Shown here: positions 6,845 through 58,644 of the stretch, one piece after another
Numbering within the stretch: position 1 is the first letter of the stretch
How the letters are laid out: each line of letters starts with the position of its first letter
Program-made: the position numbers and the translations under genes
The notes under the pieces: generated by a model
The model's input: only the letters and a program-made list of their open reading frames with translations
What the model was told of the DNA's origin: nothing
Databases searched by the model: none
Assembly (NCBI RefSeq): GCF_017348835.2
Contig: NZ_CP071375.1
Origin: Escherichia coli
GTDB taxonomy: Bacteria > Pseudomonadota > Gammaproteobacteria > Enterobacterales > Enterobacteriaceae
Direction: 5' to 3' (one strand)
Length of the DNA: 64,000 bases

Positions 6845-7684
6845 TTAGCGCCCCCGAATACCATCAGCCAGACGTTTGCCGTTACGCACCGACAGCAGCG
6901 TCAGCAAAGTGCGCCAGGTCATATGTTTATTGCGGATCTGGTAGAGGGTAAACAGCTGATATTTTTTGCTGGCGCGGTCAAATTTGTCTTTGTGCTTGCG
7001 GTAAAAGTGGAAGTATCCGGAGAATTTTTTCGGTGACGAGGTGATCTGCATTTCACCGTGATTGATATGCAGGATCTGCGTCGCCTCTTCCACTTTCCAC
7101 GGTTCGCCGTACTCCACCACCATCCGCAGGAAGATGTCGTAATCCTGTGCCGCTTTCAGTTCGGTATCGAACAAACACTCTTTGAAACGCCATGCCCAGG
7201 TAAAGACCTGATTGCCAATGATATTGCGTTTATAGAACAGGCGGCGTGAGTACGGCGATTTGGGATACAGTGGTAAGCTTGCCGGTTGGGAATAAACTTC
7301 TCCCTGGCATACGTAGTCGTTAGCGTACAAAAAGGCGTGAGTGACCAGTTGCTGTTTATGGGCGAGGAAGACGCTCAGGCGGTTGGGGGTCCATTCGTCA
7401 TCGTCATCGATCCCGGTAATGTATTCCCCTTGCGCCAGCATAATCGCCTGGTTACGTACCGCGCACGCCCCGCTGTTAATGTCGTTGTGAATGTAGGTAA
7501 TACGCGGATCGTTGAGGGCGGTGACGTACTGTTGCAGTTGTTCCCAGGAGGTGGAGCAATCATCCACGATGATCATCTCCCAGTTGCTGTAGTCCTGGCG
7601 CAAGACCGATTTTATCGCCCGAATCGCCAGTTGTTGGCGGTTCCAGGTCGGCATATAGATTGAGATCAGCGGATTGTCTTTCAT
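6845..7684 (-). CDS. wcaA: Colanic acid biosynthesis glycosyltransferase (GT2)
   Basis: 279-aa ORF MKDNPLISIYMPTWNRQQLAIRAIKSVLRQ... with GT2 N-terminal signature and DDDD motif. Confidence 0.9.
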   Translation of the reverse strand: MKDNPLISIYMPTWNRQQLAIRAIKSVLRQDYSNWEMIIVDDCSTSWEQLQQYVTALNDPRITYIHNDINSGACAVRNQAIMLAQGEYITGIDDDDEWTPNRLSVFLAHKQQLVTHAFLYANDYVCQGEVYSQPASLPLYPKSPYSRRLFYKRNIIGNQVFTWAWRFKECLFDTELKAAQDYDIFLRMVVEYGEPWKVEEATQILHINHGEMQITSSPKKFSGYFHFYRKHKDKFDRASKKYQLFTLYQIRNKHMTWRTLLTLLSVRNGKRLADGIRGR

Positions 7685-7714
7685 AGGTTGTTCTCCCGGC
7701 TTATGAGCTGGTTT

Positions 7715-7775
7715 GCTTGCCGGATGCGGCGTGAGCGCCTTATCCGGCCTACGGGGCGGTGCGAATGCAGGCGTC
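7715..7775. repeat. REP (repetitive extragenic palindrome) element between wcaA and wzc
   Basis: gccggatgcggcgtgagcgccttatccggcctacg, the typical E. coli REP consensus. Confidence 0.7.
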
Positions 7776-7776
7776 G

Positions 7777-9939
7777 TTATTTCGCGTCCGACTTATATTC
7801 GTATTCGTAATAGCCATAATCCTGATACGCGCTGGCGCGGCGGAAGATGGAGTTCAGAATCACCCCTTTCACCGGAATACCGTTTTGCTCAAAGCGGCTC
7901 AGACTGGTTTCCACTTCTTTCAATGTGTTGACCGCATAACGCGCCACCATTAACGTGGTTCCGACATGACGACCAACAATTGCCGCATCGGTCACTGCCA
8001 GAATCGGCGGCGTATCAATCAACACCAGGTCATAGTTTTTACTCGCCCAGTTCACCAGTTCGGCAAAGCGTTCGCTCATTAACAGTTCAGAAGGATTTGG
8101 CGGCACCTGACCGCGCGGGATCAGGTCAAATTTGGCAATAGAGGTCGGTTTAGCTACGGTAGTAATATCGCCCTGACCAATCAGAATTTCCGACAGGCCA
8201 TTAACGTTATTAGTGCCCAACAGCTCATGGGTGTAGCCTTTGCGCATATCGCAGTCGATCAACAACACCCGTTTATTGGTCTGGCTGATCACTGCCGCCA
8301 GGTTGGCGCAGACAAAGGTTTTACCGATTGACGGGCTAACCCCGGTCATCATCAACACATTGTTCTGCGCCTGCATCATCGCGAAGTGCAGACTGGTACG
8401 CAGACTACGGATGGCTTCAATCGCCAGATCGGTTGGATTCCCCACCGCCAGTAGCTGGCTCTGTTTATAGCGTTTAATCCCTTTGATGGTTTTGACGCTA
8501 TCGCGCGCTTTCTGCCACTCCGACAGCGGGATGCTGGCATAGACGCTGATACCGTGTTCTTCCAGCACCTGCGGGCTTTCGATGCCGCGATTAAACAACG
8601 AGCGCAGCAGCACACCCACGATAGAGAGCATCAGGCCAAGGATAATCGCGCCGAGGATAATCAGCCCTTTCTTCGGTTTTAGCACGCCAGGCTGGGTGAT
8701 TGCCGGGTCAACAATGCGCACATCGCCGACGGTGCTGGCTTCGGTGATTTTCAGCTCCTGCTCTTTATTCAGCAGTTGCATATAGACCTGCTGACCAGAC
8801 TCGACATCGCGGGTCAGGCGCACAATCTCCTGCTGGGTTTTCGGCATCGCCGTTACGCGACCGTTAAGTTTGGCTTTCTCTTCTTCCAGCGCCTGACGTT
8901 TCTCCAGCAGCGTGCGGTACGCCGGGTGAACTTTGGTGTACAGCTTGGAGATTTCCGCCTCTTTAAAGGTCAGTTCGTTCAACTGCGCGTCGATGTTCAC
9001 CATCGAATCGAGCACCGCTTTCGCTTCCAGCGGCAGATCAACAGAATCTTTATCCTGACGGAAGGCATTCAGTTTGTTTTCGGCAACATCAAGGCGGCTA
9101 CGTACTTCCGGTAACTGTTGCGCGAGGAAAGCGAGGCTTTTCGACGCTTCCGCCGATTTGCGCTCAATATTTTGTTCCTGATAGTTACGGGCGATGCTGT
9201 TAAGAATGTCGCGGATCTGTTCGCGATCTTCACCGGTATAAGTCAGGCTCAGTACGCCTGCGTCTTTGCCGTTCTCCGTTACCGTCAGGCTGTTTTGCAG
9301 TTGGTTGATCATCCCCAGCTTGGAGTATTTGGTGATGGTAAACTCACTGCCCGGGCTGGCGTGAATAGCTTCAACCATCAGCGTGACGCCTTCTTTTGTC
9401 AGCATCTGGCCCGCTTGCCCACGGGCGCTAAAGCCGCCATCGCTGCTCAGAGTGTAGTTTTTATCGTCCAGCACATTAAGCGTAAACACCTGATCCGCCA
9501 TCTCTTTCGGACGGTTAAAGGTAGTCACTTTCACCGTCTCGTTCTGGCGTCCCATCAGACGATCCCAGCCCGCACCGAAAATCGGGAACGTGTTTTTGCT
9601 CACCGCAATATCGAGGTCGAGATCGTCCACCGTTTTACCAAGCACCAGGCGCGAACGAATCAACTGGATCTCGGCGTCCGATGCAGGCGGTTTGTTGGCT
9701 AACGCCGATCCGATATCCTGCACTAACGAATTGCCGCTGCTTTGCTCGATTTGTACCAGTGCGTCGGCACTATAAATCGGCGTGGCGAAGAAGGTGTAAA
9801 CCACGGCACAGAGGGCAAATACGGCGGTGATGCCAATCACCCACCAGCGCGCTTCAATGACGGTGCCGACCAGGCGACCAATATCGATTTCATCACTGCC
9901 CGTTACCGGAGCGGCATGTTGTTTTACTTTTTCTGTCAT
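7777..9939 (-). CDS. wzc: Tyrosine autokinase / polysaccharide co-polymerase Wzc
   Basis: ORF track 732 aa; ATG at 9937-9939 gives the 720-aa product MTEKVKQHAAPVTGSDEIDIGRLVG...; Walker A (GVSPSIGKT) and C-terminal Tyr-rich tail (YQDYGYYEYEYKSD). Confidence 0.93.
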   Translation of the reverse strand: MTEKVKQHAAPVTGSDEIDIGRLVGTVIEARWWVIGITAVFALCAVVYTFFATPIYSADALVQIEQSSGNSLVQDIGSALANKPPASDAEIQLIRSRLVLGKTVDDLDLDIAVSKNTFPIFGAGWDRLMGRQNETVKVTTFNRPKEMADQVFTLNVLDDKNYTLSSDGGFSARGQAGQMLTKEGVTLMVEAIHASPGSEFTITKYSKLGMINQLQNSLTVTENGKDAGVLSLTYTGEDREQIRDILNSIARNYQEQNIERKSAEASKSLAFLAQQLPEVRSRLDVAENKLNAFRQDKDSVDLPLEAKAVLDSMVNIDAQLNELTFKEAEISKLYTKVHPAYRTLLEKRQALEEEKAKLNGRVTAMPKTQQEIVRLTRDVESGQQVYMQLLNKEQELKITEASTVGDVRIVDPAITQPGVLKPKKGLIILGAIILGLMLSIVGVLLRSLFNRGIESPQVLEEHGISVYASIPLSEWQKARDSVKTIKGIKRYKQSQLLAVGNPTDLAIEAIRSLRTSLHFAMMQAQNNVLMMTGVSPSIGKTFVCANLAAVISQTNKRVLLIDCDMRKGYTHELLGTNNVNGLSEILIGQGDITTVAKPTSIAKFDLIPRGQVPPNPSELLMSERFAELVNWASKNYDLVLIDTPPILAVTDAAIVGRHVGTTLMVARYAVNTLKEVETSLSRFEQNGIPVKGVILNSIFRRASAYQDYGYYEYEYKSDAK

Positions 9940-9941
9940 TC

Positions 9942-10385
9942 TTATACCTGCTCTGCGTTCAATGCCTGCGCCCACTGGCGGGCAGACCGTTCAAGTAATG
10001 TGTACACCGCTGCAAACGTTTCCCGGCTTTTGCGATACGGATCGGGGATTTCACATTCGTTATCCCAGTGACCAAACAGCATCACTTTGCCGCGCATCTC
10101 CGGTGCCATCTCGCATAAGCGTTCGATATGGCGCTTTTCCATGGTCAAAATCAGGTCGTAGTTGCGACACAGACGGCGGCTGATTTGACGGGCACAGTGA
10201 CCTTCCAGAGACAGTTGATGTTCTGCGGCGACGCTGATAGCGGTAGGATCAGCGCCCTTACCGACCAGCGCGCCGAGTCCAGCGGACTCCACTTTCAGCT
10301 CCGGGTGATAACGTTGCAGTAAGCGTTCCGCCGTCGGGGAACGGCAAATATTGCCGACACAGACAACTAATATGTTGTTAAACAT
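9942..10385 (-). CDS. wzb: Low-molecular-weight protein-tyrosine phosphatase Wzb
   Basis: 147-aa ORF MFNNILVVCVGNICRSPTAERLL..., the CX5R LMW-PTP P-loop. Confidence 0.93.
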   Translation of the reverse strand: MFNNILVVCVGNICRSPTAERLLQRYHPELKVESAGLGALVGKGADPTAISVAAEHQLSLEGHCARQISRRLCRNYDLILTMEKRHIERLCEMAPEMRGKVMLFGHWDNECEIPDPYRKSRETFAAVYTLLERSARQWAQALNAEQV

Positions 10386-11708: not shown

Positions 11709-11720
11709 CACGCTACCGCC
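11709..11720 (-). promoter_or_regulatory. ops element (RfaH recruitment site) within the JUMPstart sequence of the wza leader
   Basis: Plus strand reads cacgctaccgcc, whose reverse complement is GGCGGTAGCGTG, the ops consensus; lies in the long untranslated leader upstream of wza. Confidence 0.7.
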
Positions 11721-11933
11721 CCTGGCTTTTTAGCTACCAATACACTGATTTAGCTTAATTTTTCAAACCCTCTCAACATACAGTCGTTGATGAGAAAGGG
11801 TTATTGTGGAAATTAACTTCCGAATATAAGGTGACATTATGGTAATTGAATATTGGCTCTCCAATAATGCAGGAGGAAGTGTTACAGCTAACGGAATAGC
11901 AGGCAAGGTAACAATTCGGCAATTGGCTATTTT

Positions 11934-12188: not shown

Positions 12189-13772
12189 ATGGAATGGATT
12201 GCCGATCCGTCTATCTGGGCCGGGTTAATCACGCTGATTGTGATCGAACTGGTCCTCGGCATTGATAACCTGGTCTTTATTGCCATCCTCGCCGAAAAAC
12301 TACCGCCGAAGCAGCGCGACCGCGCACGGGTTACCGGGCTGCTGCTGGCGATGTTAATGCGCCTGTTACTGCTGGCGTCAATCTCCTGGCTGGTCACCCT
12401 GACTCAACCGCTGTTCAGCTTCCGCTCGTTTACCTTTAGCGCCCGCGACTTAATCATGCTGATTGGTGGTTTCTTCCTGTTGTTCAAAGCCACGATGGAG
12501 CTGAACGAACGGCTGGAAGGGAAAGACAGCAATAATCCCACACAACGCAAAGGTGCGAAGTTCTGGGGCGTGGTGACACAAATTGTGGTACTGGACGCCA
12601 TCTTCTCACTCGACTCAGTGATTACCGCCGTCGGGATGGTCGACCATTTACTGGTCATGATGGCCGCCGTGGTTATCGCTATCAGCCTGATGTTGATGGC
12701 CAGCAAGCCGTTAACGCAATTTGTTAACAGTCACCCGACGATCGTTATTCTCTGCTTAAGCTTCCTGTTGATGATTGGCTTTAGTCTGGTGGCAGAAGGT
12801 TTCGGTTTCGTCATTCCGAAAGGCTACCTGTACGCTGCCATTGGTTTCTCGGTGATGATCGAGGCGCTCAATCAGTTGGCTATCTTTAACCGGCGACGTT
12901 TTCTTTCCGCTAACCAGACGCTGCGCCAGCGGACTACCGAAGCGGTAATGCGCCTGCTTAGCGGGCAAAAAGAGGATGCGGAACTGGACGCCGAAACCGC
13001 GTCCATGCTGGTGGATCATGGTAACCAGCAGATCTTTAATCCGCAGGAACGGCGGATGATTGAGCGGGTACTTAATCTTAACCAGCGTACCGTCAGCAGC
13101 ATTATGACGTCGCGCCACGATATTGAGCATATCGATCTCAACGCGCCGGAAGACGAGATCCGCCAGTTGCTGGAGCGAAATCAGCATACGCGGCTGGTGG
13201 TTACCGACGGTGATGACGCAGAAGATTTGCTCGGTGTTGTTCACGTTATCGACCTGCTACAACAGTCACTGCGCGGCGAACCGCTCAACCTGCGGGTGTT
13301 GATTCGCCAGCCGCTGGTGTTCCCGGAAACCTTGCCATTGTTACCTGCCCTGGAGCAGTTCCGTAATGCCCGCACACACTTTGCTTTTGTGGTGGATGAG
13401 TTTGGTTCAGTGGAAGGGATTGTGACATTAAGTGACGTCACTGAAACCATTGCCGGTAACTTACCGAACGAAGTGGAAGAGATCGACGCCCGCCATGATA
13501 TTCAGAAGAATGCGGACGGATCCTGGACGGCGAATGGTCATATGCCGCTGGAAGATCTGGTGCAATATGTGCCGCTGCCGCTGGATGAAAAACGTGAATA
13601 TCACACCATTGCCGGGCTGTTGATGGAGTATTTGCAGCGTATTCCAAAACCTGGCGAAGAAGTTCAGGTGGGGGATTATTTGCTTAAAACGTTGCAGGTA
13701 GAAAGCCATCGCGTGCAGAAGGTGCAAATTATTCCGCTTCGTAAGGATGGCGAGATGGAGTACGAGGTGTGA
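12189..13772 (+). CDS. yegH: Inner-membrane protein YegH (TerC-family membrane domain plus CBS pair and CorC/HlyC C-terminal domain)
   Basis: ORF track 540 aa; ATG at 12189 gives the 527-aa product [30 protein letters not shown]... Confidence 0.9.
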
Positions 13773-21351: not shown

Positions 21352-21448
21352 CCCCATCGCCTGATGCGACGCTAACGCGTCTTATCATGCCTACAAATCG
21401 CTCATTCTCCAGGCCGGATAAGGCGCTCGCACCGCATCCGGCGACCAA
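21352..21448. repeat. REP/BIME element between dgcE and alkA
   Basis: cctgatgcgacgctaacgcgtcttatcatgcctac...ccggataaggcgctcgcaccgcatccggcg, inverted REP units. Confidence 0.65.
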
Positions 21449-27152: not shown

Positions 27153-27333
27153 AAGAAATCCTTTCTTAGAGAATTATTGAGGTCCGGTATCATACCGACT
27201 GCAATAATGAAATAAGAGCAGGCAAAGCAACTTTCAGAATTCGGCCCGGCGGCGCAGAAAATTTTGCTATTCGCCTCGCAAGAACGGAGAGCCGTCGATT
27301 GACACTAAGGGCGGAGTGACATAATTTCAGGAG

Positions 27334-27482
27334 TGAGGGTTAGGGAGAGGTTTCCCCCTCCCCCTGGTGTTCTTAGTAAGCCTGGAAGCTAATCACTAAG
27401 AGTATCAGCAGTATGATGACGTGCTTCATCATAACCCTTTCCTTATTAAAAGCCCTCTTCTCCGGGAGAGGGTTTCCCGTTT
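27334..27482 (+). ncRNA. sibA: Sib antisense sRNA, copy 1 (approximate ends)
   Basis: Plus-strand transcript fully overlapping the ibs ORF; candidate -35 ttgaca at 27299-27304 and terminator hairpin gccctcttctccgggagaggg + T-tract near 27450-27482. Ends inferred, not mapped. Confidence 0.6.
27373..27432 (-). CDS. ibsA: Ibs type I toxin, copy 1 (19 aa, MMKHVIILLILLVISFQAY)
   Basis: Hand translation of the reverse complement of 27373-27432; hydrophobic membrane peptide typical of Ibs toxins. Confidence 0.7.
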   Translation of the reverse strand: MMKHVIILLILLVISFQAY

Positions 27483-27667
27483 CAGCGTCCCGCTGAAATC
27501 GTCGGCTTACCTCCTTTCGCCCTGAATGCAGTCTATCGCTAACGCGTGAACAAAATAGTTCCCTCTGTGATTATTGCGTAACGACTCGCAAAGAATATTT
27601 GCTGGCAGGATCGCAGACTGCAAAGCCTGCAGATTGACAATCTTATCGTGAAGGCATACTTTCAGGA

Positions 27668-27811
27668 GTGAGGGTAGAGTGGGGTTTCCCCCGCCCTGGT
27701 AGTCTTAGTAAGCCGGGAAGCTTATGACTAAGAGCACCACGATGATGATCCACTTCATCATGACCCTTTCCTTATTTAAGGCCCCTTCCTCGGGAGGGGC
27801 TTTCCCGTTTC
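27668..27811 (+). ncRNA. sibB: Sib antisense sRNA, copy 2 (approximate ends)
   Basis: Candidate -35 ttgaca at 27634-27639, -10-like tacttt; terminator ggccccttcctcgggaggggc + T-tract ending about 27811. Confidence 0.6.
27705..27761 (-). CDS. ibsB: Ibs type I toxin, copy 2 (18 aa, MMKWIIIVVLLVISFPAY)
   Basis: Hand translation of the reverse complement of 27705-27761. Confidence 0.65.
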   Translation of the reverse strand: MMKWIIIVVLLVISFPAY

Positions 27812-27994
27812 AGCGTCCCGCTGAAATCGTCGGCTTACCTCCTTTCGCCCTGAATTCAGTCTATCGCTAACGCGTGAACAAAATAGTTTCCTCTGTGATT
27901 ATTGCGTAACGTCTCGCAAAGAATATTTGCTGGCAGGATCGCAGACTGCAAAGCCTGCGGATTGACATTCTGAACGTGAAGGCATACTTTCAGG

Positions 27995-28138
27995 AGTGAG
28001 GGTAGAGCGGGGTTTCCCCCGCCCTGGTAGTCTTAGTATGCTGGGTAGCTAATCACTAAGAGCACCACGATGATGAGTATCTTCATCATGACCCTTTCCT
28101 TATTTATGGCCCCTTCCTCGGGAGGGGCTTTCCCGTTT
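27995..28138 (+). ncRNA. Sib antisense sRNA, copy 3 (extra copy relative to the two I remember at this K-12 locus; approximate ends)
   Basis: Third repeat unit with the same promoter-like ttgaca…tacttt and terminator hairpin ggccccttcctcgggaggggc + T-tract. Confidence 0.55.
28033..28089 (-). CDS. Ibs type I toxin, copy 3 (18 aa, MMKILIIVVLLVISYPAY)
   Basis: Hand translation of the reverse complement of 28033-28089. Confidence 0.6.
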   Translation of the reverse strand: MMKILIIVVLLVISYPAY

Positions 28139-29615: not shown

Positions 29616-32600
29616 TGCAGGTGTTACCTCCGAGCAGCACAGGCGGCCCGTCGCGCCTGTTTATTATGCGTCCTGTCGCCACCACGCTGCTGATGGTGGC
29701 GATCTTACTCGCCGGGATTATCGGTTATCGCGCCCTGCCCGTTTCGGCGCTGCCGGAAGTGGACTATCCGACCATTCAGGTGGTCACGCTCTACCCAGGT
29801 GCGAGCCCGGATGTCATGACCTCTGCCGTTACCGCGCCGCTCGAACGCCAGTTCGGGCAGATGTCTGGTCTGAAACAGATGTCGTCGCAAAGTTCCGGCG
29901 GTGCGTCAGTTATCACTTTGCAGTTCCAGCTAACATTACCGCTGGATGTCGCCGAGCAGGAAGTACAGGCCGCGATTAACGCTGCGACCAACTTGTTGCC
30001 GAGCGATCTGCCTAACCCGCCGGTTTACAGCAAAGTGAACCCGGCAGATCCGCCGATCATGACGCTCGCCGTCACCTCAACAGCCATGCCGATGACGCAA
30101 GTGGAAGATATGGTGGAAACCCGCGTCGCGCAGAAAATCTCGCAGATTTCCGGCGTCGGCCTGGTGACGCTTTCCGGCGGCCAGCGTCCGGCTGTTCGCG
30201 TCAAACTTAACGCTCAGGCGATTGCCGCCCTCGGCCTGACCAGCGAAACCGTGCGAACCGCCATTACCGGCGCTAACGTTAACTCGGCAAAAGGTAGCCT
30301 CGACGGCCCTTCCCGTGCGGTCACGCTTTCCGCGAATGACCAAATGCAATCTGCGGAAGAATATCGCCAGTTGATTATCGCCTACCAGAACGGCGCGCCG
30401 ATTCGTCTGGGCGATGTCGCAACCGTAGAGCAAGGTGCAGAAAACAGCTGGCTCGGCGCGTGGGCGAATAAAGAACAGGCCATCGTGATGAATGTTCAGC
30501 GCCAGCCCGGTGCTAACATTATCTCCACCGCCGACAGCATCCGGCAGATGCTGCCACAGCTCACCGAGAGTCTGCCGAAATCGGTGAAGGTGACGGTACT
30601 TTCTGACCGTACCACCAATATCCGCGCATCCGTCGATGATACTCAGTTTGAATTGATGATGGCTATCGCGCTGGTAGTAATGATTATCTACCTGTTTTTG
30701 CGCAATATTCCGGCGACCATCATTCCCGGCGTCGCAGTGCCGCTGTCGTTAATCGGCACCTTCGCGGTCATGGTGTTTCTCGATTTTTCAATCAATAACC
30801 TGACGCTGATGGCGTTAACTATCGCCACCGGATTCGTGGTCGATGACGCCATCGTGGTGATCGAAAATATTTCCCGCTATATCGAAAAAGGCGAAAAACC
30901 GTTGGCGGCGGCGCTCAAAGGCGCAGGTGAAATCGGCTTTACCATTATCTCGCTGACCTTCTCGCTGATTGCGGTGTTGATCCCACTGCTGTTTATGGGC
31001 GATATCGTCGGGCGACTGTTCCGCGAATTTGCTATTACCCTGGCGGTAGCGATTTTAATCTCAGCCGTGGTGTCGCTAACCCTGACACCGATGATGTGCG
31101 CACGGATGCTCAGCCAGGAGTCGTTGCGTAAACAGAACCGCTTCTCCCGTGCCTCGGAAAAAATGTTCGACAGGATAATCGCCGCCTATGGTCGTGGACT
31201 GGCGAAAGTGCTGAATCATCCGTGGCTGACCTTAAGCGTGGCGCTCAGCACGCTGCTGCTTAGCGTTCTATTGTGGGTGTTCATTCCGAAAGGTTTCTTC
31301 CCGGTACAGGATAACGGCATTATTCAGGGCACTTTGCAGGCACCGCAATCCAGCTCCTTTGCCAATATGGCCCAGCGGCAACGCCAGGTCGCGGACGTGA
31401 TTTTGCAGGATCCGGCAGTGCAAAGTCTGACCTCATTTGTTGGCGTTGATGGCACTAACCCGTCGCTGAACAGTGCGCGTTTGCAGATCAACCTCAAACC
31501 GCTGGATGAACGTGATGATCGGGTGCAAAAAGTCATCGCCCGTCTGCAAACGGCGGTGGATAAAGTGCCGGGCGTCGATCTCTTCCTGCAACCAACGCAG
31601 GACCTGACCATCGATACTCAGGTCAGCCGCACCCAGTACCAGTTTACCTTGCAGGCCACGTCACTGGATGCGCTCAGTACCTGGGTGCCACAGTTGATGG
31701 AAAAACTCCAGCAGCTGCCACAGCTATCTGATGTCTCCAGCGACTGGCAGGACAAAGGGCTGGTGGCGTATGTCAATGTTGATCGCGACAGCGCCAGCCG
31801 TCTGGGGATCAGCATGGCGGACGTCGATAACGCCCTGTACAACGCGTTTGGTCAGCGGCTGATTTCCACTATTTATACTCAGGCTAACCAGTATCGCGTG
31901 GTGCTGGAGCACAACACCGAAAATACCCCAGGGCTTGCGGCGCTGGATACCATTCGCCTGACCAGTAGCGAAGGCGGCGTGGTGCCGTTAAGCTCAATTG
32001 CCAAAGTTGAACAGCGTTTTGCGCCGCTTTCCATCAACCATCTGGATCAGTTCCCGGTAACGACCATCTCTTTTAACGTGCCAGATAACTATTCGCTGGG
32101 CGATGCGGTGCAGGCGATTATGGACACCGAAAAGACGCTGAATCTGCCGGTGGATATCACCACGCAGTTCCAGGGCAGCACCCTCGCCTTCCAGTCGGCG
32201 CTGGGCAGCACTGTCTGGCTGATTGTCGCGGCGGTGGTGGCGATGTATATCGTGCTCGGCATTCTATACGAGAGCTTTATTCACCCGATCACCATTCTCT
32301 CGACGCTACCCACCGCAGGGGTCGGCGCACTGCTGGCGTTAATGATTGCCGGTAGCGAACTGGATGTGATTGCGATTATCGGCATTATTTTGCTGATCGG
32401 TATCGTGAAGAAGAACGCCATCATGATGATCGACTTCGCGCTGGCTGCTGAGCGCGAGCAAGGCATGTCGCCGCGCGATGCAATCTACCAGGCTTGTCTG
32501 TTGCGTTTTCGTCCGATCCTGATGACCACTCTGGCGGCTCTGCTTGGCGCGCTGCCGCTGATGTTGAGTACCGGGGTCGGCGCGGAACTGCGTCGTCCGT

Positions 32601-40768: not shown

Positions 40769-42130
40769 ATGTTTAAACCGGAACTCCTTTCCCCGGCGGG
40801 AACGCTGAAAAATATGCGTTACGCTTTCGCTTATGGCGCAGATGCTGTTTATGCGGGCCAGCCGCGTTACTCCCTGCGTGTGCGCAACAACGAATTCAAC
40901 CACGAAAACCTTCAGCTCGGCATCAATGAAGCCCACGCGCTGGGGAAAAAGTTTTATGTCGTGGTCAACATTGCACCGCACAACGCCAAGCTGAAAACCT
41001 TTATCCGTGACCTGAAACCGGTGGTGGAAATGGGGCCGGATGCGCTGATTATGTCCGATCCAGGGCTGATTATGCTGGTGCGTGAGCACTTCCCTGAAAT
41101 GCCGATCCACCTCTCGGTGCAGGCTAACGCCGTAAACTGGGCGACGGTGAAATTCTGGCAGCAAATGGGCCTGACCCGCGTGATCCTCTCTCGCGAGCTG
41201 TCGCTGGAAGAGATTGAAGAGATCCGTAATCAGGTGCCGGATATGGAGATCGAGATCTTCGTTCACGGCGCACTGTGCATGGCCTACTCCGGTCGCTGCC
41301 TGCTCTCTGGCTATATCAACAAGCGCGACCCGAACCAGGGTACCTGCACCAACGCCTGCCGCTGGGAGTACAACGTCCAGGAAGGGAAAGAAGATGAAGT
41401 TGGCAACATCGTACACAAGTACGAGCCGATTCCGGTGCAAAATGTTGAGCCGACGCTGGGTATCGGCGCGCCAACCGACAAAGTGTTTATGATCGAAGAG
41501 GCCCAGCGTCCGGGCGAGTATATGACCGCGTTTGAAGATGAGCACGGCACTTACATCATGAACTCGAAAGATCTGCGCGCCATCGCCCATGTAGAACGCC
41601 TTACCAAAATGGGCGTGCATTCGCTGAAAATCGAAGGTCGTACCAAATCTTTCTACTATTGCGCACGCACCGCACAGGTTTACCGCAAAGCTATCGATGA
41701 TGCCGCTGCGGGCAAACCGTTTGACACCAGCCTGCTGGAAACCCTGGAAGGTCTGGCGCATCGTGGCTATACCGAAGGTTTCCTGCGTCGTCATACTCAC
41801 GACGATTATCAGAACTACGAATACGGTTATTCAGTTTCTGACCGCCAGCAGTTTGTAGGTGAGTTTACCGGTGAGCGCAAGGGGGACCTCGCGGCGGTAG
41901 CGGTGAAAAATAAATTCTCCGTTGGCGACAGCCTTGAGCTGATGACGCCGCAAGGCAACATTAACTTTACCCTTGAGCACATGGAAAACGCCAAAGGTGA
42001 AGCGATGCCGGTCGCACCAGGCGATGGTTATACTGTGTGGCTCCCGGTCCCGCAGGATCTTGAGCTCAATTACGCTCTGCTGATGCGTAATTTCTCCGGG
42101 GAAACCACGCGTAACCCACACGGTAAGTGA
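40769..42130 (+). CDS. yegQ: Peptidase U32-family protein YegQ (TrhP, implicated in tRNA 5-hydroxyuridine synthesis)
   Basis: 453-aa ORF MFKPELLSPAGTLKNMRYAFAYGADAVYAGQPRYSLR... Confidence 0.9.
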   Translation: MFKPELLSPAGTLKNMRYAFAYGADAVYAGQPRYSLRVRNNEFNHENLQLGINEAHALGKKFYVVVNIAPHNAKLKTFIRDLKPVVEMGPDALIMSDPGLIMLVREHFPEMPIHLSVQANAVNWATVKFWQQMGLTRVILSRELSLEEIEEIRNQVPDMEIEIFVHGALCMAYSGRCLLSGYINKRDPNQGTCTNACRWEYNVQEGKEDEVGNIVHKYEPIPVQNVEPTLGIGAPTDKVFMIEEAQRPGEYMTAFEDEHGTYIMNSKDLRAIAHVERLTKMGVHSLKIEGRTKSFYYCARTAQVYRKAIDDAAAGKPFDTSLLETLEGLAHRGYTEGFLRRHTHDDYQNYEYGYSVSDRQQFVGEFTGERKGDLAAVAVKNKFSVGDSLELMTPQGNINFTLEHMENAKGEAMPVAPGDGYTVWLPVPQDLELNYALLMRNFSGETTRNPHGK

Positions 42131-42214
42131 TTAATTTCGATTATTTTTCCCGGATGGAAAATTCTTAGAAACCGATCACATACAGCTGCATTTATTAAGG
42201 TTATCATCCGTTTC

Positions 42215-42301
42215 GCTGAAAAACATAACCCATAAAATGCTAGCTGTACCAGGAACCACCTCCTTAGCCTGTGTAATCTCCCTTACACGGGCTTATTTTT
42301 T
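42215..42301 (+). ncRNA. cyaR: CyaR (RyeE) Hfq-dependent sRNA
   Basis: gctgaaaaacataacccataaaatgctagctgtaccaggaaccacctccttagcctgtgtaatctcccttacacgggcttatttttt matches my memory of CyaR, including the terminal hairpin and U-tract. Confidence 0.85.
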
Positions 42302-44120: not shown

Positions 44121-44152
44121 TGCCGGATGCGGTGTAAACACCTTATCCGGCA
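44121..44152. repeat. REP element between yegS and gatR
   Basis: tgccggatgcggtgtaaacaccttatccggcatac. Confidence 0.65.
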
Positions 44153-44164
44153 TACAGAACAATA

Positions 44165-44944
44165 CTACACCGTAATTAATTTTACCCGTGTCTTCTGCAA
44201 TGCCAGTTTATCCACCTCTGACACGGCATCATCGGTAATAATAATGTCAATTTTTTCGATTGGCAGTACCTGATTAAAACCGCGACGATTAAATTTCGAT
44301 GAATCGAGAACGGCAATCACTTTATTTGCGGCGGTGACCATCGCCCCGCTAATCGAATAACCTTCATTAAAGGTCGTAATACCATTAACCGCATCAATAC
44401 CATCAGCACCGACAAACATTAAATCGGCATTAATATCCTGCAATGAACGCTCGGCAATGGAACCATGCATCGAGCGCGTTTTATGGCGGACCGTGCCACC
44501 ACAGACGACCAGAGTAATGTCTTTATTTTCGGAAAGGGCAAACGCTGCCGGGAGACTGTTGGTAATCACCGTGATATTTTTGGCGGTCATTAATCCTTCG
44601 GCGATAAGCATTGTCGTACTTCCGCTGTCGAGAATAACGGTCATCCCTTCGTGGATCATTTTGACTGCCGCCTGCGCTATTCTGTTTTTTGGCGCGCTGG
44701 CGAGCTGAAATCGCTCTTTAAACCCGACTTCCTGGGTCTCGGTTTCACTATTACCGGACATTATTTTCGCCGCACCGCCATGAAAGCGCGTAACCACGCC
44801 TTTTTGTTCGAGAAAGCGCAAATCGGCACGGATTGTCGCTTCCGAGGCAGCAAATACTCCCGCCAGATCCTGAACAAGCACGGTTCCCTGTTCATTCACT
44901 AATTGGATGATCTTATTCCTTCGCTCGAATGAATTCATCGTCAT
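44165..44944 (-). CDS. gatR: DeoR-family galactitol operon repressor GatR (apparently intact)
   Basis: 259-aa uninterrupted ORF MTMNSFERRNKIIQLVNEQGTVLVQDLAGVFAASEATIRADLRFLEQKG…; no IS element interrupts it. Confidence 0.88.
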   Translation of the reverse strand: MTMNSFERRNKIIQLVNEQGTVLVQDLAGVFAASEATIRADLRFLEQKGVVTRFHGGAAKIMSGNSETETQEVGFKERFQLASAPKNRIAQAAVKMIHEGMTVILDSGSTTMLIAEGLMTAKNITVITNSLPAAFALSENKDITLVVCGGTVRHKTRSMHGSIAERSLQDINADLMFVGADGIDAVNGITTFNEGYSISGAMVTAANKVIAVLDSSKFNRRGFNQVLPIEKIDIIITDDAVSEVDKLALQKTRVKLITV

Positions 44945-45043: not shown

Positions 45044-46084
45044 TCAGGGAATGAGCAACACTTTGCCCGGCATAGCATTACGAGCGATGTCACGCACCGC
45101 CTGGGCGAAGCATTCAAAGCTTCCACGGTGAGCGATTAATGGCTCCAGGCTTAACTTACGTTCTGTCAGCAACCGGCTCGCCGTTTCCCACTCCTGCCCC
45201 GGCCAAGGGCTGGAGTAGTTCATCCAACTGCCGATAACCGTCAGCTCTTTACGCAATATTTTGCCAAACGTTGCCGATGTTAAATGCAGATCCTGATGCA
45301 ACGTCCCCACCAGCGCCAGTTGGGCATGAGGACCGGCAATCTCTACCGCCAGTTCCACAGTTTGCGGTACGCCAGCCGTCTCGAGGATAAGCTGATTAAA
45401 GCGCAGCTCGCGTAAAACGCCCTGCATTTGCGGCGCGCTCATTTCGCTACTGTTAAATGTTTGCATCGCACCGAAAGATTTTGCCAGTGCCAGTTTTTCT
45501 GAGCTAATGTCGATCGCCGTCACACTCTTTGCTCCCAGCGCGACAGCGCACTGAATAGCCAGCAGACCAATGGTTCCGGCACCAATAATAATAACGTTTT
45601 TATTCTCACAACCTTGCGCTAAATGAAAAGCATGCAGGCCAACGGTAATCGGTTCAATAAAAGCCCCATCCTCAATAGGCATATCCGTGGGTAGAGCAAA
45701 GACATTTTTCCGCTTAACGACAATATATTCGGCAAATCCACCATCACGCCGTGAGCCAATAAAATCATATTTTGCGCACTGGGAATAAAACCCTTTCAGA
45801 CACTCTGGACAAGTAAAACAAGGTAATAACGGCACACAGGCAACCGCATCGCCAGGGTGTAAATCATCAACACCGGATCCCACCACATCAATATAGCCGC
45901 TAAATTCATGGCCTAACGTTATTGGATAATAATGTGCACCATTTTTAAATATCCTGGGTAAATCGGAACCACATAAGCCCGAGCTGGCAATTTTTACCCG
46001 CACCTCATCCTGATGTTTAATTTCAGGAATGACGCTTTCTGCAACGCGCACGATACCATCAGTATCATTCACCACTGATTTCAT
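45044..46084 (-). CDS. gatD: Galactitol-1-phosphate 5-dehydrogenase
   Basis: 346-aa ORF, Zn-dependent MDR alcohol dehydrogenase motifs. Confidence 0.93.
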   Translation of the reverse strand: MKSVVNDTDGIVRVAESVIPEIKHQDEVRVKIASSGLCGSDLPRIFKNGAHYYPITLGHEFSGYIDVVGSGVDDLHPGDAVACVPLLPCFTCPECLKGFYSQCAKYDFIGSRRDGGFAEYIVVKRKNVFALPTDMPIEDGAFIEPITVGLHAFHLAQGCENKNVIIIGAGTIGLLAIQCAVALGAKSVTAIDISSEKLALAKSFGAMQTFNSSEMSAPQMQGVLRELRFNQLILETAGVPQTVELAVEIAGPHAQLALVGTLHQDLHLTSATFGKILRKELTVIGSWMNYSSPWPGQEWETASRLLTERKLSLEPLIAHRGSFECFAQAVRDIARNAMPGKVLLIP

Positions 46085-49531: not shown

Positions 49532-50467
<936 letters not shown>

Positions 50468-50572
50468 TTAAATGTCGAGATAACGATCACAAAAACGACA
50501 ATATGAAAAATTGTTCGAGGAGTGAAAGGCAAAAAAAACGGCCTCCCGATAGGGAAGCCGTAGCAAAGTGCG

Positions 50573-50712
50573 CGTTATTTTATGCCGGATGCAGTGTAAA
50601 CATACGTGGCAGCGCTGTGTAGGCATGATAAGACGCTTCAGCGTCGCATCAGGCATAGGTTGCCGGATGCAGCGTAAACGCCTTATCCGTCCTACGGGGT
50701 GGTGTTGTTCGT
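50573..50712. repeat. REP/BIME cluster between gatY and fbaB
   Basis: gccggatgcagtgtaaacatacg…gataagacgcttcagcgtcgcatcaggc…gccggatgcagcgtaaacgccttatccgtcctacg, multiple inverted REP units. Confidence 0.7.
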
Positions 50713-58511: not shown

Positions 58512-58644
58512 AGTTTGCTCCTGCCATAACGTGAAGAAGCAATGACCTGGTGGTCCGTGACTTCCCTACGCTGGCATTATCCAGATCAGGTGATACGGGT
58601 ATTTCTCAGCCTTCACGCAGAAGGGCACCCCGAGTCGTTTGGTT
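58512..58644 (-). promoter_or_regulatory. TPP (THI-box) riboswitch in the thiM leader
   Basis: Minus strand reads aaccaaacgactcggggtgcccttctgcgtgaaggctgagaaatacccgtatcacctgatctggataatgccagcgtagggaag…ggcaggagcaaactATG, which matches the well-studied E. coli thiM aptamer and expression platform as I remember it. Confidence 0.9.

Follow-up and report, generated by a model that had tools for sequence, protein, structure and literature searches.

A single Y-type REP between wzc and wcaA in the colanic acid operon of Escherichia coli and its likely modest effect on the operon mRNA

Stem-loops located after wzc are known from related polysaccharide operons. For the Klebsiella cps loci, a stem-loop is predicted at the matching position (Rahn & Whitfield 2003). 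For the colanic acid operon, Lacour et al. place a stem-loop attenuator immediately after wzc, the source given there being a review, and Navasa et al. 2013 state that RfaH is needed for the genes downstream of wzc, citing a study of the K30 group 1 capsule. Hence, the interpretation offered in the initial annotation of the DNA described here, namely that a palindrome between wcaA and wzc could stabilize the mRNA or partly terminate it and so set the export genes apart from the glycosyltransferase genes, is already in print; a primary test of the attenuator idea for the colanic acid REP was not found in the literature. Stem-loops, including REPs, also keep PNPase and RNase II from degrading Rho-terminated transcripts from their 3' ends. 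For REP325 in the yjdM-yjdN operon, it was reported that the upstream gene is stabilized and the downstream gene attenuated, the latter partly in a Rho-dependent manner (Harris et al. 2026 bioRxiv). Across 146 REP-containing tandem gene pairs, expression is biased toward the upstream gene with wide scatter, and the effects of REPs reportedly depend on context and are often absent. Iguchi et al. 2011 (PLoS One 6:e23250) found REPs of 34-36 bp between wcaA and wzc, one of which is conserved in all the strains in their comparison. Hence, the element itself is already described.

The wzc-wcaA element analyzed here is an ordinary single Y-type REP of the E. coli repeated extragenic palindrome family. 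It is contained in a 64-kb stretch of E. coli DNA (64,000 nt, referred to as the window), where the 2 kb around it match strain PE164 with 100% identity and most other strains, K-12 among them, with 97-98%. The two strings by which it had been recognized, GCCGGATGCGGCGT and CCTTATCCGGCCTAC, are located at 7719-7732 and 7738-7752, and the plus strand at 7719-7752, within the 7715-7775 interval given in the initial annotation, reads GCCGGATGCGGCGTGAGCGCCTTATCCGGCCTAC. This sequence agrees with the Y-type consensus in 33 of 34 bases (E = 1.4e-12, blastn-short within the window); the census of the window used consensus sequences of the Y, Z1, and Z2 types. CTAC at 7749-7752 on the plus strand appears in the mRNA as GUAG 5' of the hairpin and is the GTAG/CTAC tag of REPs. 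The element is extragenic, flanked by the stop codon of wzc (7777) and the start codon of wcaA (7684), and it is multicopy: a 126-nt spacer query matches, mostly via the REP, a median of at least 40 places per E. coli genome. Of the label under which it was first listed, a REP/BIME at an operon boundary, the REP part holds. The spacer of the window contains one REP and not the two or more alternating REPs with linkers of a BIME, and it is located inside an operon.

The Rfam model naRNA4 (RF02564) is a REP-derived two-hairpin unit of the Y+Z2 type with a gathering threshold of 59.5 bits. The wzc-wcaA REP covers one hairpin of this model at 7705-7749 on the minus strand with 37.3 bits and thus stays below the threshold; beyond this match, which is the REP itself, no other known structured RNA is found in the spacer. 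In mRNA order, the spacer consists of the wzc UAA, 24 nt, GUAG, the REP hairpin, 34 nt, and the wcaA AUG, so that the tag begins 24 nt and the stem 28 nt past the stop codon. The hairpin is composed of a 7-bp stem, a 2x2 internal loop, a 4-bp stem, and a CUCA loop. Folded alone, it has an energy of -19.5 kcal/mol (z = -4.0), accounts for 85% of the ensemble, and is equaled in stability by 0 of 200 shuffles. The 116-nt region folded as a whole is not significant (z = -1.47), and the REP hairpin alone stands out. In the minimum-energy fold, CCCG (7755-7752, minus strand) just before the REP additionally pairs with CGGG (7695-7698), which shares bases with the wcaA Shine-Dalgarno sequence, so that the REP hairpin is enclosed. 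This pairing is missing from the centroid and hence weak; it could link translation of wcaA to the folding of the REP. The coordinates of all features are collected in Table 1, where the bounds of wzc are those of an open reading frame extended to the farthest possible start codon.

Table 1. REPs and related features of the window, with strand and the basis of each assignment.
Feature	Coordinates	Strand	Basis
Y-type REP, single	7719..7752	-	33/34 to consensus, hairpin fold, sub-threshold naRNA4 match
wzc-wcaA intercistronic spacer, 92 nt	7685..7776	-	ORF coordinates
wcaA Shine-Dalgarno GGGAGA, 7 nt before ATG	7692..7697	-	conserved across genera as GGGGAA
wzc, tyrosine kinase; TAA at 7779-7777	7777..9975	-	ORF list, gene name by comparison
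wcaA, glycosyltransferase, first gene 3' of the REP	6845..7684	-	ORF list, gene name by comparison
JUMPstart with ops GGCGGTAG (11720-11713), upstream of wza	11709..11747	-	Rfam, 57.3 bits vs gathering 35
Z2-type REP between convergent dgcE and alkA	21359..21394	+	consensus match, fold
Y-type REP, inverted, between convergent dgcE and alkA	21411..21442	-	consensus match, fold
Single Y-type REP between convergent yegS and gatR	44122..44151	+	consensus match, fold
Half REP, left arm only, GCCGGATGCAGTGTAAAC, downstream of fbaB toward gatY	50584..50601	+	consensus match
BIME in the fbaB 3' untranslated region, Z2 + Y head-to-head	50619..50695	-	consensus, Rfam, fold
Intrinsic-terminator-like hairpin + 8-T run, immediately 3' of the BIME as read on the fbaB strand	50538..50561	-	sequence scan

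Full-length REPs occur at just four sites in the 64 kb (blastn-short with the Y/Z1/Z2 consensus). All of them had been named in the initial annotation, whose three sites other than wzc-wcaA, namely dgcE-alkA, yegS-gatR, and gatY-fbaB, each hold consensus matches; besides the wzc-wcaA REP, this amounts to five full REPs and one half REP. A loose 14-mer search gives 25 matches versus 10.2 expected, a number reached by no shuffle. The Z2 and Y REPs between dgcE and alkA stand tail-to-tail over a 16-nt linker and form a BIME-like pair. The fbaB BIME is composed of a Z2 REP at 50619-50654 (minus strand) and a Y REP at 50662-50695 (plus strand). Because this pair clears the gathering score of naRNA4 (64.5 versus 59.5 bits), its REP nature is confirmed independently by Rfam. 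The MG1655 RefSeq record carries repeat features at none of the four REP sites, an absence that is uninformative.

Several neighboring features of the window can be noted in passing. In gatY (49559-50419, minus strand), an in-frame TAG at 49991-49993 gives GQLGG*EDD in place of GQLGGQEDD in K-12, and the gene is thus probably a pseudogene here. The gatR gene (44165-44944, minus strand) is intact with 259 amino acids, and the K-12 copy is interrupted by IS3E. SIB RNA (Sib antitoxin) gives three tandem full-length matches on the plus strand at 27299-27447, 27634-27776, and 27962-28104 with 138-143 bits; K-12 presumably has two copies at the equivalent locus, so that the copy number appears to differ. 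The sRNA CyaR (42213-42298, plus strand) and a TPP riboswitch (58546-58642, minus strand) are found at gathering scores and are ordinary and expected.

On the mRNA, the wzc-wcaA hairpin is followed by AAGCAAACCAGC and by no U-tract. Hence, the REP is not an intrinsic terminator, and a consensus scan of the minus strand from 7300 to 8200 yields no terminator-like site. The initially proposed separation of export from glycosyltransferase genes by stabilization or partial termination is plausible by analogy with other REPs; termination of the intrinsic type is the part of it that falls, given the missing U-tract on the mRNA strand. Two further candidates were rejected: a terminator-like match at 7696-7711 is antisense, on the wrong strand, and of chance frequency (1 found versus 0.9 expected), and an internal wcaA promoter is represented by 0 sites in a sigma-70 consensus scan of 7300-8200, within the reach of that scan. 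The JUMPstart/ops upstream of wza is the expected RfaH loading site for a transcript that crosses the REP, and an RfaH-modified, termination-resistant RNA polymerase is hence predicted there. In position, a hairpin that follows wzc directly, with JUMPstart/ops at the head of the operon, corresponds to the K30-type arrangement. Exact GGCGGTAG octamers are also present at 12300-12307 and 45343-45350 on the minus strand and at 31042-31049 and 41893-41900 on the plus strand; these four extra octamers compare with ~2 by chance (both strands, 64 kb), and none is inside a JUMPstart match.

Expression across the junction can be judged from published fold-changes. Upon Rcs induction by a LolCDE inhibitor at two doses, wza is induced 47x and 93x, wzb 45x and 95x, wzc 17x and 45x, wcaA 11x and 26x, wcaF 12x and 26x, and gmd 9x and 23x, values that are inductions and not absolute levels. 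The drop in induction from wzc to wcaA is 1.6-1.7x, and the REP-free drop from wzb to wzc is larger (2.1-2.6x); hence, the gradient need not stem from the REP. In E. coli K92, loss of rcsB lowers wzc 14.7-fold and wcaA 17.9-fold, and loss of rcsA lowers wzc 1.7-fold, wcaA 2.7-fold, and wcaD 6.9-fold (Navasa et al. 2013). The two genes are co-regulated with a step of at most ~1.7-fold, and any effect of the REP is therefore modest. Transcription clearly continues across the REP, and a strong terminator is excluded by these fold-changes, which neither prove nor exclude a modest effect. As for 3' ends, neither wzc nor wcaA is mentioned in the main texts of the Term-seq papers.

The explanation favored here, with moderate confidence, is read-through combined with a modest post-transcriptional exonuclease-barrier effect in favor of wza-wzb-wzc, to which weak Rho-dependent attenuation may add without RfaH. 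The REP occupies the one gap in the proximal part of the cps/wca operon that tolerates insertions. It is transcribed within the Rcs-driven wza-wzb-wzc-wcaA... mRNA. Most RNA polymerases would read through it, especially with RfaH loaded at ops, and the main effect, if any, would be post-transcriptional. Once the mRNA has been cut by an endonuclease or terminated farther downstream, the hairpin would block the 3'-to-5' exonucleases PNPase and RNase II, and the wza-wzb-wzc segment would outlive the distal glycosyltransferase segment, giving a modest upstream-biased ratio. With RfaH in short supply or wcaA poorly translated, weak, partly Rho-dependent attenuation as in REP325 may contribute as well. 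Judged by analogy, the most likely effect is that exonucleases are kept from the upstream mRNA, a possible one is weak Rho-dependent attenuation, and the REP probably at most fine-tunes the mRNA of export genes relative to that of synthesis genes. As it stands, this is of little import: the REP is the most abundant E. coli repeat, this copy is published, and its proposed roles are textbook knowledge. The level and phosphorylation state of Wzc control the amount and polymer size of colanic acid. If spacer alleles shift Wza/Wzb/Wzc relative to the synthesis enzymes, the junction would be a natural case of REP turnover tuning an operon, and such tuning, if true, would leave promoters and coding sequence untouched.

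Three common alleles of the wzc-wcaA spacer are found within E. coli, which differ in how many REPs they contain, in REP orientation, and in how far the REPs lie from the stop codon. Allele A, with 92 nt, is that of the window and of K-12; its one Y REP is oriented GUAG-first, and the stem follows the stop codon at a distance of 28 nt. Allele C, with 177 nt, begins 11 nt after the stop codon with a REP GUCGGAUGCGAUGC...CCGACCUAC of the opposite orientation (-19.4 kcal/mol, z = -6.4), which is followed by a half Y REP and a full Y REP; with two inverted REPs and a half REP, it constitutes a BIME. Allele B, with 128 nt, contains one REP and a half REP and resembles allele C minus 49 nt between direct copies of a REP half. 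Alleles B and C share the oppositely oriented REP, which begins 11 nt past the stop codon of wzc. Example spacers are found at 1086-1262 of locus L002, 1086-1213 of L003, and 1373-1500 of L007. Among 5,426 complete genomes, allele A is present in 2,738, C in ~1,050-1,180, and B in ~890-950, with shares of about 58%, 22%, and 20%, respectively; an evenly spaced sample of 59 genomes gives 34 A, 14 C, and 11 B. About 670 of the 5,426 genomes are without a megablast match to the wcaA-wzc region, and in these the cluster may have been deleted, may have diverged, or may have given way to another locus (e.g., one for a group 1 capsule). All three alleles retain at least one complete REP hairpin. Eight divergent allele-A sequences show two loop substitutions, a 3-nt bulge insertion, and one G-C to G-U change in the REP, and the stem is broken in none of the eight, a small sample chosen for divergence.

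Beyond E. coli, one genome per species was scanned with WcaA, giving 80 loci from ~25 genera, and the spacer was extracted from 79. Some stable palindromic repeat is present at the junction in 68 of the 79 Enterobacteriaceae species, in strongly folding spacers of 56-347 nt. The remaining 11 species, among them Leclercia, Silvania, Cedecea, and Pseudescherichia vulneris, have a 10-28 nt spacer without a hairpin, which shows that the hairpin is dispensable for the operon. Citrobacter carries E. coli-type REPs in either orientation. Enterobacter, Lelliottia, Kosakonia, Kluyvera, Phytobacter, and others carry 1-5 copies of CCCTCTCCC-N-GGGAGAGGG palindromes, often followed by GGGTGAGGG; in this group (within loci L008-L086, ~60-350 nt upstream of wcaA), spacers extend to 347 nt and minimum free energies to -204 kcal/mol. 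Salmonella and some other genera contain further kinds of element. No terminator-type U-tract follows the strongest hairpins in the spacers of these species. Conservation across genera is confined to ~12 nt directly upstream of the wcaA start codon, the Shine-Dalgarno region GGGGAA. At the control junction wcaA-wcaB, the gap is 2 nt in 73 of 77 species. The junction data fit either selection for some hairpin after wzc or the sole junction with room for mobile palindromes.

The second of these options leads to the strongest rival explanation, in which the REP is a neutral passenger: a selfish or hitch-hiking element in the sole gap that accepts insertions, with no measurable effect on cps. It is a serious possibility that falls short of being probable. 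The 11 of 79 species that manage with a spacer of 10-28 nt and no element agree with it, as do the neighboring junctions, which overlap or measure 2-5 nt and cannot accept insertions. Element family, copy number, and orientation vary freely among genera and E. coli alleles, wzc and wcaA are equally responsive to loss of RcsB, and REP effects, depending on context, are often nil. Neutrality is less easily reconciled with the intact hairpin in every E. coli allele and with variation within an allele that spares the stem. Moreover, a stable palindrome is present in 86% of species, compared with a REP in ~6% of the tandem gene pairs of MG1655 (146/~2,600), and a hairpin of -19.5 kcal/mol should hinder 3' exonucleases acting on an mRNA.

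Less likely than a neutral passenger, and unlikely on the whole, is a partial attenuator, in which the hairpin pauses the polymerase, Rho terminates some transcripts after wzc, and RfaH recruited at ops relieves this; it overlaps with the favored explanation of read-through and an exonuclease barrier. The literature that places a stem-loop attenuator right after wzc in the colanic acid operon speaks for it, together with the stated requirement for RfaH downstream of wzc (Navasa et al. 2013, citing the K30 study) and the stem-loop predicted at the matching place of Klebsiella cps loci. REP325 attenuates partly Rho-dependently, an ops is present upstream, and the losses upon deletion of rcsA grow downstream (wzc -1.7, wcaA -2.7, wcaD -6.9). 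On the other hand, the published statement rests on a review, with primary colanic acid data not found in the literature, and the hairpin lacks a U-tract. Just 34 nt stay untranslated before a good Shine-Dalgarno sequence and ATG; since the wcaA Shine-Dalgarno sequence is located inside these 34 nt, little untranslated RNA would be left for Rho loading. The C/G ratio around and past the REP is modestly raised, to 1.2-1.8, and the step at the junction (at most ~1.7x) is below the REP-free step from wzb to wzc.

A broader reading of the interspecies data, which is doubtful, sees the junction as a selected 'hairpin slot' into which unrelated palindrome families (E. coli/Citrobacter REPs, the CCCTCTCCC/GGGAGAGGG palindromes, and others) are recruited; the E. 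coli alleles could then determine, lineage by lineage, how much Wzc is made relative to the glycosyltransferases. If true, the alleles could act via mRNA stability, attenuation, or ribosome stalling, and the amount or chain length of colanic acid would be altered without a change in promoter or protein.

A role at the DNA level, either as a binding site for gyrase, IHF, or DNA polymerase I or as a recombination junction for the O-antigen/colanic acid region, is improbable. Binding of gyrase and IHF is a property of BIMEs. The window holds a single REP and not a BIME, and the free orientation of the elements argues against an orientation-specific function of the DNA. The three-allele spacer, in which B resembles C minus 49 nt between direct repeats of REP halves, would suit recombination, and Iguchi et al. 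2011 saw REP-containing indels that coincide with recombination junctions in the region; they report the wcaA-wzc REP, however, as conserved in all their strains and not as a junction point. Harris et al. moreover found no role in chromosome compaction and no REP-REP contacts.

Most improbable of all is translational down-regulation of wzc, in which a stop-proximal REP would stall the terminating ribosome and lead to mRNA cleavage and tmRNA tagging. Such stalling reportedly involves a REP within roughly 15 nt of the stop codon, and the distances in the window, 28 nt for the stem and 24 nt for GUAG, exceed this limit; it is the 28-nt distance that makes stalling unlikely for allele A. For alleles B and C (~42% of genomes), where a REP follows the wzc stop codon after 11 nt, the mechanism of Liang, Rudd and Deutscher 2015 is a fair question.

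Compared with the systems described previously, the element is closest to that of Iguchi et al. 2011, which is the same REP at the same locus; REPs are treated there only as possible recombination points, with no three spacer alleles and no expression test. The K30/Klebsiella group 1 attenuator has in common with it the position after wzc and before the glycosyltransferase genes, the JUMPstart/ops and RfaH logic, and the proposed split of export from synthesis genes. It differs in belonging to another locus and in its structure, which is described as related to a Rho-independent attenuator, whereas the colanic acid element is a REP without a U-tract for which attenuation was not found reported in the literature. 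The malE-malF and hisJ-hisQ loci contain two or more REPs each, compared with one in the window. At both loci, as at wzc-wcaA, a hairpin is located between co-transcribed genes, and protection of the upstream mRNA from 3' exonucleases was proposed to cause differential expression within the operon; that role was tested by deletion, whereas the role of the wzc-wcaA REP is proposed by analogy (Newbury et al. 1987; Stern et al. 1988). REP325 is likewise a REP element between tandem genes. However, it is a large multi-REP array with a ~35-fold ratio of upstream to downstream expression and is linked to Rfam naRNA4, whereas the wzc-wcaA junction has one REP that stays below the naRNA4 threshold (37.3 versus 59.5 bits) and a step of at most ~1.7x.
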